Part shown: piece by piece, positions 1,949-61,435 of the stretch
Position numbering within the stretch: position 1 is the first letter of the stretch
Layout: each line of letters starts with the position of its first letter
IMG/VR virus record: IMGVR_UViG_3300001580_000011
Coordinates: 1 to 64,000 of that record
DNA length: 64,000 nt
Reading direction: 5' to 3' (one strand)
DNA from: a virus
Lineage: Duplodnaviria > Caudoviricetes
The notes under the pieces: generated by a model
Seen by the model: only the letters and a program-made list of their open reading frames with translations
Told to the model about the DNA's origin: nothing
The model's database searches: none
Program-made: the position numbers and the translations under genes

Positions 1949-2785
1949 ATGAAAGCATCAATTGATATTCAATCCTATAAAGCAAATTTTCTTGGTGGTG
2001 CAAGACAATATCTTTTTTGGACACAAATAAATTTTCCTAGCTGGGGAAATGTATTACAGGCAACCTTACAAAAGGGTCTTGCTCAACGTGAGACAATGGA
2101 AGGTTTGATGGAAGGTGGTAAAGAGGCGGCCAAGACGGGAGCAACAGGGGCAGCTGCCACATTATCTGATACTGCATTTTTGAATAAAGATCAGAAAAAA
2201 TGGCCTTATCTTGTCAAATCAACTAATTTACCATCATCTGATATTGAAGAAATTGTAACATCGTGGGTCGGCCAAACATATAAGATGGGCGCAAGAAGAA
2301 TAGTAGATGATTGGACGGTTACATTTATAGTAGATAATGATGGTGCTATATTGAAACGTTTTTGGGATTGGCAGAATATTATTCATAATCCAGAAGCCAA
2401 TATTTATGGAAAACCTATGTCATATATGGCAGATCAGGAGATACATCTTCTTGGTTATGATACAGGAGAAACTATTTGTGTATACAAATTGTTTGGTGCT
2501 TGGCCAAAAAATATAGGACAGGTTCAATTAGATTACTCAACAAATGATATTGCACAATTTGATGTAACATTTTCATACCAATATCATGTTGTAACAGAAA
2601 AAGAGCAGGGTGCATTGGCAAGTTTTCTTGGTCGTGCAGGTCGTTCTGTTCTTGCTGGAAGTATGGGTGCTATTACTGGCGGTCTTAATAACCTTACTCT
2701 AGGTAATATAGGTAATGCCGGTGGAACAACATCACCACCTGTAAATGCAGATGGTTTTGTAAATAAAGGAAATGTACAATGGTAA
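1949..2785 (+). CDS. gp19-like tail tube paralogue
   Basis: GGARQYLF/STNLP/DWTVTF/GAWPKNIG..LDYS motifs, insertion and Gly-rich tail. Confidence 0.7.
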   Translation: MKASIDIQSYKANFLGGARQYLFWTQINFPSWGNVLQATLQKGLAQRETMEGLMEGGKEAAKTGATGAAATLSDTAFLNKDQKKWPYLVKSTNLPSSDIEEIVTSWVGQTYKMGARRIVDDWTVTFIVDNDGAILKRFWDWQNIIHNPEANIYGKPMSYMADQEIHLLGYDTGETICVYKLFGAWPKNIGQVQLDYSTNDIAQFDVTFSYQYHVVTEKEQGALASFLGRAGRSVLAGSMGAITGGLNNLTLGNIGNAGGTTSPPVNADGFVNKGNVQW

Positions 2786-2801
2786 GGAGGTTTTATAGAA
2801 T

Positions 2802-3617
2802 ATGTCGAATTTTAAAAGGTATCTCAACGCGTATGAATTTGAGACTGTTTTGCCCGGAAGCGGTGAAAGTATAAAATTCAGACCCATAACAACGGGTCAA
2901 ATTAAGAAGCTTTTGGTTTATGAGGGTGCCGAAGAACCAGAGATTATTGAAAAGGCATTGGATGAAATTATTGAAGGTTGTGTTATAAAAGAAGGATTTA
3001 GTATTTCAGACTTATACCTTCAAGATAGATTTTTTCTTTTGTTGGAATTGAGAAAGGTTACAAAAGGCAATCTATATCAATTTCAAAGTGTATGTCCAAG
3101 TTGCAACTCACAGTCTTTACAAACTGTAGATTTACAGAAATTACCTGTAAAAGTTTTACCGAGATTGAAGAAAGAAAAAATTTCTACGAAAGGTAAAAAG
3201 GTTGTTTTGGAGGAACCAGAAGAAACAAAGACACTTATTGGTTGGAATATTATAAAAATAAATAATAATATTTCTTTGAGAATGTGCCCTATTACAAGGG
3301 GTATGCAAATAATGTCCACAGAGTTGATGAAAGCAAATTTTGCCGATGCGAAACCAATGGAACAGGCAATGAATTTAAGTTCGATTATTTTTGCACTTTC
3401 TATTCAAGAGGTGATTACCCCTTCTGGTGTTGAGGGTGATTTGAGTTTGGATGATAAGATATATCTTCTTGATAATCTAACTCAAAAAGAAACTGAAAAA
3501 ATACCAGATTGGTTTGAAAAAAATAATTTTGGTGTTGACCTTAAATTTGATGTTTTATGTCCTCAATGTGGAACAAAAGTAATTAGGGATATTCCATTAG
3601 AAGATTTTTTCTCATAA
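2802..3617 (+). CDS. Baseplate hub assembly protein, gp26-like
   Basis: LPGSGE.IKFRP, LRK..KG, CPSC/CPQC, C-terminal LEDFF; synteny. Confidence 0.8.
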   Translation: MSNFKRYLNAYEFETVLPGSGESIKFRPITTGQIKKLLVYEGAEEPEIIEKALDEIIEGCVIKEGFSISDLYLQDRFFLLLELRKVTKGNLYQFQSVCPSCNSQSLQTVDLQKLPVKVLPRLKKEKISTKGKKVVLEEPEETKTLIGWNIIKINNNISLRMCPITRGMQIMSTELMKANFADAKPMEQAMNLSSIIFALSIQEVITPSGVEGDLSLDDKIYLLDNLTQKETEKIPDWFEKNNFGVDLKFDVLCPQCGTKVIRDIPLEDFFS

Positions 3618-23620: not shown

Positions 23621-23650
23621 GTTTACATTTGATGTTAGATAGGGTATAAT
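23621..23650 (+). promoter_or_regulatory. Early-type promoter of the Y-RNA/Ro60 unit
   Basis: GTTTACA-N17-TATAAT, same as other promoters in the window. Confidence 0.8.
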
Positions 23651-23768: not shown

Positions 23769-23857
23769 CTATCAGTGGCGTAGGACGAGGTTACTTCATA
23801 CATTTGTCAAAATGACCGGGCTTCGGCCCATTTCCTTTTCCGCCTGTTCCCTGATAG
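23769..23857 (+). ncRNA. Y-RNA-like unit 1
   Basis: Terminal stem CTATCAG/CTGATAG; GTGGCGTA, TTACTTCA and TGTTCC conserved blocks; internal cUUCGg hairpin; upstream of Ro60. Confidence 0.7.
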
Positions 23858-23871
23858 CATTATATTGAAAA

Positions 23872-24002
23872 TAAATGGTGGCGTAGGACGCAGTTACTTC
23901 ATTTGATAGATGAGAAGGCGGGTTCAACTCCCGTACACCCCAACGAATATGGGGTGTGTTCCGGCGAACAAACAATTTCTGTTTCCGCTTGTTCCCCATT
24001 TA
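23872..24002 (+). ncRNA. YrlA-like Y RNA (unit 2) with circularly permuted tRNA-like domain
   Basis: Stem TAAATGG/CCATTTA; T-arm GCGGG-TTCAACT-CCCGT; loop-closed acceptor-like stem ACACCCCA/TGGGGTGT; D-like arm GTTC/GAAC. Confidence 0.8.
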
Positions 24003-24012
24003 CTGATATTTT

Positions 24013-24116
24013 GAGGGTGGCGTAGAACGAGATTACTTCATCGGGAACCAGAAAGTGATCCACTGTAAAGAGGAATCCACGCTGGTATAAAAGATCTTGT
24101 TCGTCTGTTCCCCTTC
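24013..24116 (+). ncRNA. Y-RNA-like unit 3
   Basis: Same conserved blocks; inner stem GAACGAGAT/ATCTTGTTC; cargo stem ACCAG/CTGGT. Confidence 0.7.
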
Positions 24117-24128
24117 TACTAATAATAT

Positions 24129-24194
24129 AAGGGTGGCGTAAAGTGGGCTTACTTCACTCCAAATGACATGATGGCTTACTTGATTGTTCCCCTT
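24129..24194 (+). ncRNA. Y-RNA-like unit 4 (minimal)
   Basis: AAGGG/CCCTT stem, GTGGCGTA, inner stem AAGTGGGC/GCTTACTT, TTACTTCA, TGTTCC. Confidence 0.7.
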
Positions 24195-24233
24195 TTTATA
24201 AAAAAATAATTTGTACATATGGAGGTATTTGAA

Positions 24234-25592
24234 ATGGCGACCACAAAGAAATTCCTTTCAAACCAAAACAAAACCCATGAGGGTGCTCCAGCATACCTTG
24301 ATCTAACTCCCGAGCAGAAGCTCAGGCGATCAGTTCTTTCCTGCATGTTATGGGAAAGGGAAGCCTACGAGAGCGGTGATACCATCGCTAATAGAATCAA
24401 AACCTTTATTCCGCTAGTAGAACCTGAAAAGGTGGCTAACCTTGCGATTGAAGCCCGTGAGAAGATGAAACTTCGCCATGTTCCGCTTTTTATCGTCAGG
24501 GAGATGGCCCGGATCAATTCCCATAAGTCACTTGTCGCTTCAACACTCGAAAGAGTTATCCAGAGAGCGGACGAACTTACGGAGTTTTTGGCTCTCTACT
24601 GGATGGACAAAAGGCAACCACTTTCCAAGCAGGTAAAGAAAGGTCTTGGAAAAGCCTTCTATAAATTCAACGAATACCAGTTTGCTAAATACAATCGTAA
24701 TGATACTGTAAAATTTCGCGATGTATTGTTCCTTACACATCCAAAGCCTCGTAATGATGATGAGGATATTCTTTGGAAGAAAATCATCGCAAACAAATTA
24801 GCGACACCTGAAACTTGGGAATCCCGAGCGGCCGCTGGTATGGATAAGAGAACAAATTTCGAAACTTTGCTTCGTGAGAACAAGTTAGGTGCTCTTGCAC
24901 TTATTCGTAATCTTCGTAATATGACCGCGGCGGGTGTTCCAGAGAGCCTTATCCGTGACGGAATCAACCATATGAAAACCGAAAAGATACTACCTTTCCG
25001 TTTCATCACTGCTCAGCGATACAGCGAGTCTTTCACGAAAGGTCTTGAAAATGCCATGTTTAAGTGTCTTGAGGGTCATGAGATGTTAGAAGGTAAAACA
25101 CTTCTACTTATTGATGTTTCTGGTTCGATGACCATGTTACTTTCAGCAAAGTCCGATCTTACAAGATTGGATGCTGCTACGGGTTTGGGCGTTCTTCTTC
25201 GTGAAATTTGTGAAGATGTTGTCATCTATTCCTTCTCTGGCAAAACAGTGAAGGTTTCCGATGGCCACGGTTTCGATCTTATTCATAAAATCACCAATAG
25301 TCAGCCAAATAACAGTACATATTTGGGTGAAGCCATCAAAAAAGTAAACGTCAGTGAAGAGTATGATCGCATCATCGTTATTACGGATGAGCAGTCTCGC
25401 GACCGTGTTGGTTCGCCTAAAGGTATGGGATATGTTATCAATGTTGCTTCTGCCCAAAATGGTGTAGGATACGGTGTTTGGAACCATATCGACGGTTTTT
25501 CAGAAAACGTAATTTCATATATTATGGAATACGAAAAGGAATTTGTGCACAAGCAATTGTCACAAAATGTAAAACATATTAATAATTTATAA
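24234..25592 (+). CDS. rsr: Ro60/Rsr TROVE-domain RNA-binding protein with C-terminal vWA
   Basis: THEGAPA, RADE, KY.R, HPKP, TWE, ALIRNLRN, LPFRF, DVSGSM MIDAS, ITDEQ; GGAGG RBS before ATG 24234. Confidence 0.92.
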   Translation: MATTKKFLSNQNKTHEGAPAYLDLTPEQKLRRSVLSCMLWEREAYESGDTIANRIKTFIPLVEPEKVANLAIEAREKMKLRHVPLFIVREMARINSHKSLVASTLERVIQRADELTEFLALYWMDKRQPLSKQVKKGLGKAFYKFNEYQFAKYNRNDTVKFRDVLFLTHPKPRNDDEDILWKKIIANKLATPETWESRAAAGMDKRTNFETLLRENKLGALALIRNLRNMTAAGVPESLIRDGINHMKTEKILPFRFITAQRYSESFTKGLENAMFKCLEGHEMLEGKTLLLIDVSGSMTMLLSAKSDLTRLDAATGLGVLLREICEDVVIYSFSGKTVKVSDGHGFDLIHKITNSQPNNSTYLGEAIKKVNVSEEYDRIIVITDEQSRDRVGSPKGMGYVINVASAQNGVGYGVWNHIDGFSENVISYIMEYEKEFVHKQLSQNVKHINNL

Positions 25593-28115: not shown

Positions 28116-28124
28116 AGGTGATAT

Positions 28125-54630: not shown

Positions 54631-54673
54631 ACACTATCTTCATATTTTATATCTCCTTAGCAATAATAACATA

Positions 54674-54761
54674 ACTAGCCAAAAACCATAATACAAAAAA
54701 TAATAACATAATTACAAAAAGTCATCATTACAAAAAGTCATCATTACTAGCCAAAAACCAT
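54674..54761 (+). repeat. Short direct repeats
   Basis: ACTAGCCAAAAACCATA x2, ATTACAAAAAGTCATC x2; related copy near 53750-53777. Confidence 0.75.
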
Positions 54762-54796
54762 ATTATATAGGGTAAATCTAATAAGGAGGGATAACA

Positions 54797-55697: not shown

Positions 55698-55950
55698 GGG
55701 TATAACGATATAAAAAGTAGCAACCAATCTATCACTACACAAAAACCCTATCATTTAATCCCCGACTGAACATATAGCATCTCAGCCCATTCTTATTCGA
55801 TAATTCATATTACATCATTGTGTAAAGTGTCACCTTGGCACCCCTTTCATATCAATACTCTGCAGACTACTCCCGGTTTTATACTTTTTACACTGAAAAC
55901 ACTATACATCACCCCTTCTACAGTAACCAAAATATAAAATATTATATCAC

Positions 55951-55991
55951 TGTCGGTATTCTTTACACATTAGTGTCGGTATTCTTTACAC
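55951..55991 (+). repeat. 18-bp direct repeat
   Basis: TGTCGGTATTCTTTACAC x2, 23-bp period. Confidence 0.85.
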
Positions 55992-57807: not shown

Positions 57808-58023
57808 ATGAGTATGTATACAGATACGAATTTTAAGACCAAGAAGGCTTTGAAAGAGGCAGTGGCCACTGGAAAGAAAATCGGATATTACCAGCCGGGG
57901 CCTTTTGGTGGTAATGAACCTAAAGACGGAACGATTTTTTTGGAAGGGCCGTGGTATCCTCAGCCCCATAACTGGTACGCTAAGGCTATAGTTAAAAACG
58001 GTATTATTGTGAAGGTTACTTAA
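57808..58023 (+). CDS. Conserved-looking phage protein
   Basis: NFKTKKALKEAV..G, EGP.YP.PH.WYA. Confidence 0.7.
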   Translation: MSMYTDTNFKTKKALKEAVATGKKIGYYQPGPFGGNEPKDGTIFLEGPWYPQPHNWYAKAIVKNGIIVKVT

Positions 58024-58048
58024 TTTTTTAAAAAATTAAGTAACCTTT

Positions 58049-58056
58049 TATAAATA
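58049..58056 (+). promoter_or_regulatory. T4-type late promoter TATAAATA
   Basis: Exact consensus at start of ORF-free region. Confidence 0.6.
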
Positions 58057-58061
58057 AATAT

Positions 58062-58486
58062 GTAGGAAAGAAATTTAAGCTTAGTACTACCAGAGCAGAT
58101 GAGATACCAGTGGTATCGTTCTTTTGAGACATCGTAAAGCCAAGCGTCAGGAACAGTAAGGGTTTTATAACTACAACAAGGCAGTTTGTAATACTGCCTG
58201 GTATTGGACCGTAAAAAAATTACGATAGTAGGACCATAGTTGAAAACAGAAAGCAGGTGATTAAGCCAGCAATCCTGTCGTAAACAGCAGTTTGTAACAC
58301 TGCTTGGTAATAGACCAAAAAGTTACGGTATAATTAGTCGAAAGCAGAAAGCAGGTGATTAAGCCAGCAATCCTGTAATAGACAAGGGTACAGCGACTAT
58401 ACCCCGTGAACCTTTGGTAGCAGTTAGACGATAATTAACTTCGTAATCCTGTGAAAAAAGACGAACGAAAATAGGACTATTTTCGT
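58062..58486 (+). ncRNA. Candidate structured ncRNA with internal ~100-nt duplication
   Basis: No convincing ORF; 32-bp exact repeat (58247, 58345); duplicated hairpins; closing stem 58087-95/58412-20. Confidence 0.5.
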
Positions 58487-58508
58487 GCAATATAAACAAG
58501 GTGTATAT

Positions 58509-58715
58509 ATGAAGCAAGCTACCTGGGTTAAATGTAATGGAGAGGCACATGGCAATCCGTATATCGACCATTGTATGATATGCATACCCTATTGGGGCGA
58601 ATATCCGATTTGTCCGTATTGCAATTCTACGCACCTAGGTAATGGTGTCACTAGAACCAAGTGCAAGAAATGTGGTAAAATGGTAAGTATGAAACGGGAT
58701 ATCGTCCCTATATAG
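58509..58715 (+). CDS. Zinc-finger protein
   Basis: Multiple CxxC; AAGGTG RBS. Confidence 0.6.
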   Translation: MKQATWVKCNGEAHGNPYIDHCMICIPYWGEYPICPYCNSTHLGNGVTRTKCKKCGKMVSMKRDIVPI

Positions 58716-58735
58716 CGTCAAAATTTTGACGCTAT
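58712..58735. repeat. Perfect 24-bp palindrome (operator-like)
   Basis: ATAGCGTCAAAATTTTGACGCTAT. Confidence 0.85.
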
Positions 58736-59994: not shown

Positions 59995-60241
59995 TACGAA
60001 ACCTATATGATACCCTATGCAAGATCGGCGGTGTCTTTTGATGCCTAACCGGGGCTGTACAGGGTATCATATAAATATAATTATACTGTATCGGAAGGGG
60101 GTGATTATCTTCTACACTGAATAACAGTTAGACCATATTTAGATTGTATTAGAATGAATTAAAATGACTATCGAAGGACTAAAGAAACCAATGAAGTAAG
60201 ACTGTTACACTATTAACTTAAATTGATATTAGGGTTATTAT

Positions 60242-60291
60242 AAACCCCTATCCCACAGGTCTTCGGATGTCTGGCAGATAGGGGTTTTTTT
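60242..60291 (+). terminator. Rho-independent terminator
   Basis: AAACCCCTATC...GATAGGGGTTT plus T run. Confidence 0.7.
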
Positions 60292-60376
60292 ATGCCCATC
60301 AATTCAATCGAAAAATTTATAACTAGGAAATTCCCATATAAGGGGTATTATGTCCCCAATATGTCCCCTTACACTA

Positions 60377-60468
60377 TAGTGTCACCTTACAAAACCTTAC
60401 ATAGTGTCACCTTACAAAACCTTACACTACAGTATATAGCAAGGTGAAAAAAGGTGAAAAAAGGTGAA
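60377..60468 (+). repeat. 25-bp tandem repeat x2 and AAGGTGAAAA x3
   Basis: TAGTGTCACCTTACAAAACCTTACA x2; 10-bp unit at 60441-60468. Confidence 0.85.
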
Positions 60469-61220: not shown

Positions 61221-61435
61221 TAGATATGCACTTGCTTATTCAATTACAGGGAGTTATCAGCTTATAATTGCAACTATGCACTTGCTTATTCAATTACAGG
61301 GAGTTATCAGCTTATAATTGCAACGTTGCACTATTACAGGTAGATATGCACTTGCTTATTCAATTACAGGTAGATATGCACTTGCTTATTCAATAGTTAT
61401 CAGCTTATTTAATTACAACGTTGCACTATTACAGG
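61221..61435. repeat. Modular 10-bp-phased repeat field (possible origin/packaging site)
   Basis: TATGCACTTGCTTATTCAAT at 61225, 61275, 61345, 61375; other modules recur. Confidence 0.85.

Follow-up and report, generated by a model that had tools for sequence, protein, structure and literature searches.

Positions 58049–58486 of a 64,000-nt stretch of phage DNA (the window; positions 1–64,000 of the 98,256-bp IMG/VR record IMGVR_UViG_3300001580_000011, CheckV completeness ~38%) carry a non-coding element in which a unit of roughly 100 nt occurs twice in tandem. Each unit combines two small hairpins with a 32-mer that is identical in both. We tentatively propose that the element is transcribed on the + strand from a TATAAATA box, and that it forms a structured leader or non-coding RNA (ncRNA) with two to three binding modules upstream of a zinc-ribbon gene; to this reading we would give somewhat less than an even chance. 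Any function assigned to this orphan element is a guess.

The duplicated element and its conservation

Unit 1 lies at 58176–58281 and unit 2 at 58282–58379 (145 and 131 bits, respectively, with covariance model R1; coordinates here and below run along the + strand), and the two align at 86% identity. Hairpin 1 has the form GCAGT-N7-ACTGC, with the loop TTGTAAT in unit 1 (58181–58197, extending to 7 bp at 58179–58199) and TTGTAAC in unit 2 (58287–58303). Downstream of it are a mini-hairpin (GGT-ATTGG-ACC at 58200–58210; GGT-AATAG-ACC at 58306–58316), a block complementary to the hairpin 1 loop (ATTACGA at 58219–58225, a candidate second stem of a pseudoknot; GTTACGG at 58322–58328) and the invariant 32-mer (58247–58278 and 58345–58376), which is predicted to fold into an irregular hairpin with a Shine–Dalgarno (SD)-like AGGTGATT. 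In unit 1, ATTACGA has an alternative local partner, CGTAA at 58210–58214. A first-pass annotation, made from the sequence alone, had described a stretch free of open reading frames (ORFs) with two ~100-nt units, each containing GCAGT-N7-ACTGC, GGT-N5-ACC and an identical 32-mer; every feature that it named was found. The 32-mers match at 32/32 positions; identity over the remainder of the unit falls to 70%, or 80% if gap columns are ignored. An uninterrupted identical 32-mer has a window-corrected P of about 0.001–0.05, and the duplication is clearly beyond chance.

The stretch is non-coding. On the + strand no start-codon frame of 25 aa or more exists between 58024 and 58508; the − strand has a stop-free run of ~100 codons, which lacks a start codon and reads the two 32-mers in different frames. 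Coding is excluded by the offsets between repeat copies, 98 and 106 nt, neither of which is divisible by 3, and by frame-breaking indels in a related strain (X9, described below), in which four insertions and one deletion, net +4 nt, fall inside 66 nt. A more limited form of coding would make each 32-mer a mini-ORF of 7–8 codons (GTG-ATT-AAG-CCA-GCA-ATC-CTG plus in-frame stops) serving as a leader-peptide attenuator. In-frame stops do occur in all versions (TCG TAA in unit 1, TAA TAG in unit 2, TAG TAG in X9). However, the SD that stands 3 nt ahead of the GTG (AGAAAG) is a weak one, the strong AGGTGAT does not precede the start codon but overlaps with it, and perfect nucleotide identity that includes silent sites points to constraint on the nucleic acid. 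We regard this attenuator as very improbable.

Conservation across the element is non-uniform. The comparison set consists of three sequences: unit 1, unit 2 and a variant of unit 2 from a soil-metagenome contig, X9. This contig of 132 nt spans 58244–58367 and differs by 10 substitutions and 5 indel events, and all 15 changes are confined to the 66 nt between the 32-mers. It contains islands of 35 and 23 identical bases amid a background of ~77% identity, which is not expected by chance; since contigs of this kind tend to end in strain-shared sequence, part of the pattern is a discovery effect. The RTTACG block is also unchanged in X9, although its flanks have changed.

Several differences among the three sequences are compensatory. 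Within hairpin 1, unit 1 has G-C as the sixth pair where unit 2 has A-U; at the outermost core pair it is unit 2 that has G-C, and X9 has A-U (58287 G>A with 58303 C>T). The sole loop difference between the units, T58192/C58298, is mirrored by A58219/G58322 in the downstream RTTACG, such that the loop–RTTACG pair 18–45 is CG in two sequences and UA in one. When the three sequences are aligned with the pseudoknot included, 97% of cells are paired, compared with 20–50% when the partners are slid. Three of the 25 pairs change on both sides and stay paired, a result matched by 19 of 500 shuffles with three sequences only. It had been suggested beforehand that the differences between the units fall mostly in loops and linkers, and they do indeed sit in linkers or are compensatory. 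These comparisons are suggestive of selection on structure and support it modestly.

A further variant concerns copy number. In L084, a contig from JGI metagenome 3300002220 (positions 2510–3030, aligning with 58345–58380), an extra 27-nt copy of the core, AGGTGATT...CCTGTAAT, stands in tandem, such that the same phage has three core copies instead of two. The novel junction shares just 2 nt with the reference, which makes a slippage variant likelier than an assembly artefact; the third copy is probably real, with an artefact possible.

These data also bear on whether the element does anything at all. It could be a functionless tandem duplication of a spacer or of a decayed element, in which the conserved blocks reflect recent slippage or gene conversion; its restriction to one phage lineage, the slippage-prone locus in a repeat-rich region and the modest folding z-scores would all fit. 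This explanation appears quite improbable to us: the duplication is older than the split from X9, the 32-mers have stayed unchanged against 15 changes in the intervening 66 nt, three changes are compensatory, and 32 bp is short for repeated gene conversion.

Alternatively, the constraint could act on DNA. Two to three identical 32-bp direct repeats ~98 bp apart might be protein sites of the iteron or operator type that regulate the adjacent promoter or mark a site of replication or packaging. The perfectly kept repeats with variable spacers are consistent with this, as are the 27-bp duplication in L084, which would add a site, and the other tandem repeat arrays in neighbouring gaps (54662–54770, 55946–55991, 60376–60425 and 61225–61394). 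Yet the compensatory changes in hairpin 1 and a G.U-preserving change are expected of RNA and not of duplex sites; by inspection, the 32-mer lacks dyad symmetry, with only 4 terminal bp palindromic; two copies make a poor iteron array; and a better origin-like repeat field lies at ~61.0–61.4 kb. A DNA-level role is therefore unlikely in our estimation.

As an observation in its own right, tandem direct repeats occupy other gaps of this phage at 54662–54770, 55946–55991, 60376–60425, 60443–60475 and 61225–61442, comprising 37 nt x3, 23 nt x2, 25 nt x2 (perfect), GGTGAAAAAA x3 and 50 nt x3 with shuffled sub-modules. These repeat-bearing gaps lie in an early-gene-like region.

Further hairpins surround the two units. 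A closing stem had been proposed between CTACCAGAG (58087–58095) and CTTTGGTAG (58412–58420); both arms are present and would form 9 bp including one G.U, but by our estimate about one or more such stems is expected per 440 nt, and so the stem itself does not exceed chance expectation. Downstream of its 5' arm, a 6-bp hairpin, GATACC-AGT-GGTATC (58103–58117), is followed by GTTCTTTTGA and is terminator-like or attenuator-like. A hairpin at 58385–58405 has 9 bp on the − strand (two of them G.U) and two A.C mismatches on the +. The end hairpin that had been described earlier is present at 58465–58486 with 10 perfect bp (58465–58474 with 58477–58486) and GGA in the loop region. Between the closing stem and the end hairpin, at 58445–58452, the sequence AATCCTGT, with which the 32-mer ends on its 3' side, occurs for a third time; this copy could compete for the CAGG...GATT part of the 32-mers in an alternative structure.

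A structural model, its candidate promoter and its strand

The 7-nt loop of hairpin 1 and the downstream RTTACG probably form a pseudoknot. In this model the loop UUGUAAY, closed by a stem 1 of 5–6 bp, would pair via GUAAY with RUUAC ~27 nt downstream to give an H-type pseudoknot, whose connecting loop would be made up of the GGU-N5-ACC mini-hairpin and an A-rich tract. The pseudoknot could act as a second recognition element or as a ligand pocket. The 32-mer would be a self-contained irregular hairpin presenting the strong SD-like AGGUGAUU, which has the potential for 8 pairs with the 3' end of 16S rRNA. Elsewhere in this phage, at 28116, 57056 and 80089, AGGTGAT is a genuine ribosome-binding site, and no usable start codon follows the SD-like heptamer in the 32-mers. 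The repeated, perfectly conserved SD-like hairpin suggests a site for 30S binding, of an mRNA-stabilising or standby type, or a protein site.

On this model transcription would begin a few bases past the TATAAATA box at 58049, and the RNA would read through both modules into the ribosome-binding site of the zinc-ribbon gene; it would therefore be that gene's leader, ~450 nt long, and may be processed into a separate RNA. The repeated modules, two in number and three in L084, would make up a multivalent platform to which a protein, the 30S subunit or a small ligand could bind. The effect would be either to control how stable the downstream mRNA is or how well it is translated, or to titrate the bound factor.

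The TATAAATA box (58049–58056), a candidate promoter of the T4-late type, directly follows the palindrome of the upstream gene. A late promoter had been suggested here at the outset. In the window TATAAATA is not over-represented (12 found versus 12.7 expected). Across the 98-kb record, 7 of 20 copies stand no more than 120 nt upstream of a gene that is read in the same direction, which is more often than chance (P 0.0045 against a null share of 11%, not adjusted for AT-rich intergenic DNA). A promoter-like role of TATAAATA is plausible from its placement. A second box of this kind begins the stretch 60070–60292 (+), where it is followed ~20 nt later by an orphan SD-like GGGGGTGATTA lacking a start codon and, ~170 nt past that, by a strong intrinsic terminator, AACCCCTATC...GATAGGGGTT plus a T-run (~60243–60292); this stretch could be a small RNA of ~220 nt or a mini-gene of 11 codons.

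Several features favour the + strand. The TATAAATA box abuts the palindrome of the upstream gene, and the element shares the orientation of all genes from ~46 kb to the end of the window at 64 kb, every one of which is small and on the + strand. No terminator separates the element from the zinc-ribbon gene, and one follows that gene. The strand is rich in purines, and its linkers are A-rich (A 37%, AT skew +0.21). In the end hairpin, the X9 change 58484 C>T yields G.U on the + strand and A.C on the −, and two further pairs, A/G-U at the foot of the 32-mer hairpin and G.U in the closing stem, work on the + strand only.

Other observations weigh against a + strand leader. The − strand folds better, with z −3.0 against −1.9 for the whole region relative to shuffles and −3.1 against −1.65 for unit 1. 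Three structures are extended by G.U pairs on the − strand only, namely 58385–58405, the local hairpin of unit 1 and the 32-mer, and a U-run follows the end hairpin on that strand and not on the +. The complementarity between loop and RTTACG, taken alone, recurs in 12–16% of shuffles (P 0.16). The covariation rests on three sequences, two of them paralogous, because no homologue was found beyond near-identical strains. Neighbouring gaps carry tandem repeats, so duplication between genes is in itself common in this phage. The zinc-ribbon gene has two known relatives, and both of them follow another gene immediately, with no such leader; there are no RNA runs among the sequencing runs listed as carrying the stretch.

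Taken as the true orientation, the − strand would yield an ncRNA of ~350–400 nt, with a weak TTCACA-16-TATCGT promoter driving transcription from about 58420. In both of its modules AUCACCU would be displayed in hairpin loops and, as a mimic of the 3' end of 16S rRNA, could pair with the SDs of mRNAs. Besides the better z-scores, the folding of this strand is better defined (minimum free energy structure of unit 1 at a frequency of 0.19), and it is the G.U pairs of this strand that the 9-bp hairpin 58405–58385, the 7-bp local hairpin and the 7+2+2 bp hairpin of the 32-mer need; a promoter-like site is found at 58455–58428, and U-rich tails follow several hairpins. Nevertheless this site is a weak match (9/12), the genes of the surrounding 18 kb all run the other way, the loops would be U-rich and not A-rich, and a terminator-like hairpin (58486–58465) would stand upstream of the modules. 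Pairs are also lost in this orientation through the X9 change 58484 C>T and through the A/G difference ahead of the 32-mer. On balance we slightly favour the + strand, and a − strand ncRNA of this kind seems to us unlikely.

Genomic setting, relatives and candidate identities

The phage is of the myovirus type, encoding baseplate wedge and tail proteins, a UvsX-like recombinase and SbcCD-like nucleases, and has a G+C content of ~35%. At or near 100% identity it is present in hydrocarbon, wastewater, groundwater and soil metagenomes. Upstream of the element a 71-aa gene (57808–58023, +) ends with its stop codon inside a perfect palindrome of 36 nt (58012–58047; 18+18, 100% complementary), which is likely a terminator or the boundary of the upstream unit. 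The 71-aa protein falls in no family of Pfam or PHROG. IMG/VR phage contigs of 4–435 kb contain at least 103 relatives of it, up to 74% identical and each time in a different gene neighbourhood; its gene is apparently a small one that is mobile and widespread among phages. Downstream, the SD AAGGTG (58497–58502) precedes the gene for a 68-aa Cys-rich protein (58509–58715, +) with a weak match to DZR_2, the double zinc-ribbon family of Pfam, and a terminator-like hairpin follows at 58712–58735. The genes neighbouring the zinc-ribbon gene gave no Pfam or PHROG match, and protein-atlas look-ups of both flanking proteins returned only ‘hypothetical phage protein’ or generic zinc-ribbon neighbours.

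Searches for relatives of the element were negative throughout, and the matches listed for GTDB genomes likewise contained no homologue. No match was obtained by blastn in the GenBank phage collection, by exact and degenerate core patterns in IMG/VR (25-mer, 17-mer, hairpin-plus-TGGTA and 32-mer coded as purines and pyrimidines, RY), or by a 20-mer in the JGI metagenomes; the RY-coded core gave 27 matches in the latter, all of them unrelated AT-rich coding DNA. At 82 loci with relatives of the flanking genes, nhmmer and blastn found nothing, and synteny was not shared either. For relatives of the 71-aa gene the next gene is mostly within 100 nt, and hence there is no conserved pairing of this protein with the RNA. 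Covariance model R1 recovered only the two known copies when run against these loci, the phage's own genome and five related phage records, whose baseplate protein is 62–65% identical to that of this phage; DNA searches of the related records gave chance 19–22-mers only. On the evidence of these searches the element is an orphan, in one phage lineage and of no known family.

Known RNA families gave a similar picture. At the gathering threshold Rfam 15 yielded 0 matches in the whole window, and with E up to 10 the only matches were at chance level (E >1), on the palindrome 58011–58048 or marginal. The earlier label ‘unclassified’ holds, in that Rfam gave no family. Two of the roles suggested with it are not supported; the third, a protein sponge, is conceivable. 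A virion RNA has no support, in that no Rfam match to phi29 pRNA or any other such RNA was obtained. A type III antitoxin, or a mimic of one, would consist of head-to-tail repeats of 34–45 nt; here the period is ~100 nt (98–106 nt) with diverged linkers, and L084 alone shows two cores side by side, each of 27 nt. Nor was there a ToxI match or an adjacent ToxN, AbiQ, CptN or TenpN gene, the downstream gene being the 68-aa zinc ribbon.

Other identities were rejected in turn. The preQ1 riboswitch models RF00522, RF01054 and RF02680 gave no match at E up to 10, the topology alone being similar. Template and variable repeats of a diversity-generating retroelement were rejected on the grounds that the differences are not adenine-specific and that a reverse transcriptase is absent; this absence also disposes of a retron. 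A CRISPR mini-array or a solitary-repeat anti-CRISPR was rejected, as the ‘spacers’ are homologous to one another. A Y RNA partner of the phage Ro60 was rejected too, proper Y-like units standing beside the TROVE gene.

These units form a distinct locus. The gene for a TROVE/Ro60-like protein (24219–25592; PF05731, E 1.9e-14) is directly preceded by four tandem Y-RNA-like units at 23770–24195 (+), each of which begins at about GGTGGCGTAGGACG.GTTACTTCA and ends in TGTTCCCC. The second unit has a T-arm-like GGCGGGTTCAACTCCCGT and a weak match to the tmRNA 3' end (E 0.047). None of the units belongs to an Rfam family at threshold, and a sigma-70-like promoter, TTTACA-17-TATAAT, lies ahead of them at ~23622–23650. 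From its sequence the region 23770–25592 is a candidate phage Rsr/Y-RNA module (compare PMC4201824, PMC12135203).

The likeness of the element to tRNA is confined to hairpin 1. ARAGORN found no tRNA in the element at default or 80% stringency and junk only at 60–70%, and covariance models of tRNA and tmRNA gave no match, with no cloverleaf or T-arm. Hairpin 1, though, has the geometry of an anticodon arm: a 5-bp GCAGU/ACUGC stem and a 7-nt loop, UUGUAAU or UUGUAAC, with U33, G34-U35-A36 (GUA) and the purine A37. GUA is kept in all three sequences. A copy of a real tRNA-Tyr arm was nonetheless rejected: 0 of the 122 matches of the 17-mer listed for GTDB genomes (120 loci) lie inside a tRNA gene. 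Elsewhere in the record, outside the window, four tRNA-Arg genes (anticodons TCT, CCT, TCG and ACG) are clustered at 85169–86520; ARAGORN found no other tRNA in the 98-kb record.

This geometry raises the prospect of a trans-acting decoy or sponge RNA. Such an RNA would mimic a tRNA-Tyr-like anticodon arm, a ribosome-binding site or both, and titrate a host factor with a capacity set by copy number. Proposed targets include a tRNA-Tyr nuclease (of the Septu or retron-Eco7 PtuAB type), tRNA-guanine transglycosylase (TGT), a type III toxin or another RNA-binding protein. Along with the conserved GUA at 34–36, natural variation in copy number, with two in the window and a third core in L084, would fit a decoy, as would the investment of this phage in RNA biology (Ro60/TROVE with four Y-RNA-like units, and the four tRNA-Arg genes). 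Moreover, defence systems are known to attack tRNA-Tyr, and phages respond with tRNA-Tyr genes of their own or by amplifying them (PMC11555353, PMC13728456). The published rescue, however, requires a functional tRNA and not a decoy. Quite apart from the fact that none of the listed matches of the exact arm lies in a tRNA gene and that no cloverleaf or T-arm was found, the loop seems to be held in a pseudoknot and so is not free, the A38 typical of tRNA-Tyr is replaced by U or C, and the + strand has no terminator that would delimit a separate RNA. TGT and QueC genes were not found in the 98-kb record, which is itself only ~38% complete. We consider a decoy rather unlikely.

Known phage-encoded structured RNAs are few, and several of them have proved to be devices of counter-defence or takeover. 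It is conceivable, albeit distinctly improbable, that the element represents a new class of phage anti-defence RNA, a decoy of adjustable copy number for a tRNA-targeting nuclease or an RNA-binding immune effector; the third core of L084 would then be an expansion under selection, comparable to the expansion of pseudo-ToxI. If true, a conserved two-module RNA, set beside the Ro60/Y-RNA module and the four tRNA-Arg genes of the same phage, would lend weight to the view that RNA is the main level at which some large phages fight. The modules, at ~100 nt each, would provide a compact object for binding and structure studies. For an orphan of an uncultured phage, this value hinges on finding transcripts or more relatives.

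Comparison with known systems

The structured leader proposed here can be set against several families of RNA. Y RNAs mimic tRNA (PMC4201824), and as in the YrlA/Ro60 system a TROVE/Ro60 protein is encoded by this phage, together with small RNA-like units in tandem. In contrast, the element at 58 kb shares no sequence with these Y-like units (23.8–24.2 kb) and has neither a T-arm nor a recognisable terminal helix of the Ro-binding type.

In common with ToxI, CptI and TenpI, its tandem repeats follow a candidate promoter and a hairpin precedes the small downstream gene, and the extra core of L084 recalls the repeat expansion of phage pseudo-ToxI, which expands to escape ToxIN. It differs from them in its period, ~100 nt rather than 34–45 nt, in units that are not identical head to tail, and in lacking a gene of the ToxN/AbiQ type or any ToxI match.

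The sponge RNAs CsrB and RsmZ, and the stabilising Shine–Dalgarno (STAB-SD) elements of Firmicutes, likewise display a short motif for protein or ribosome binding several times over in hairpins. An SD-like sequence placed a long way ahead of any start codon corresponds to the STAB-SD principle. In contrast to these RNAs, the element has just two or three repeats and no relatives, and its candidate binding motif is AGGUGAU instead of the CsrA target GGA.

Tandem aptamers (glycine) and H-type pseudoknot aptamers (preQ1-I, -II and -III) offer a parallel in the two serial modules of a 5' leader. The preQ1 topology of a hairpin, an A-rich tract and a 3' segment pairing with the loop is found here as well, and preQ1-II in particular has a hairpin inside the connecting loop and an SD-like sequence in the downstream helix. 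The differences lie in the want of any Rfam riboswitch match at E up to 10, in SD-like sequences that precede no ORF, and in the absence of ligand-related genes nearby.

The thrS operator of E. coli is a leader with two mimics of the tRNA anticodon arm, bound by the dimeric ThrRS. In the phage the downstream gene encodes a zinc-ribbon miniprotein and not a synthetase, the hairpins lie 200–300 nt from the ribosome-binding site rather than adjoining it, the loops are apparently paired in pseudoknots, and each module adds a 32-nt hairpin. What the two would have in common is a leader with two anticodon-arm-like hairpins, each with a 5-bp stem, a 7-nt loop and a fixed ‘anticodon’, an arrangement that would suit a dimeric binder. 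In kind, the modular structured leader or ncRNA proposed here is not categorically new.

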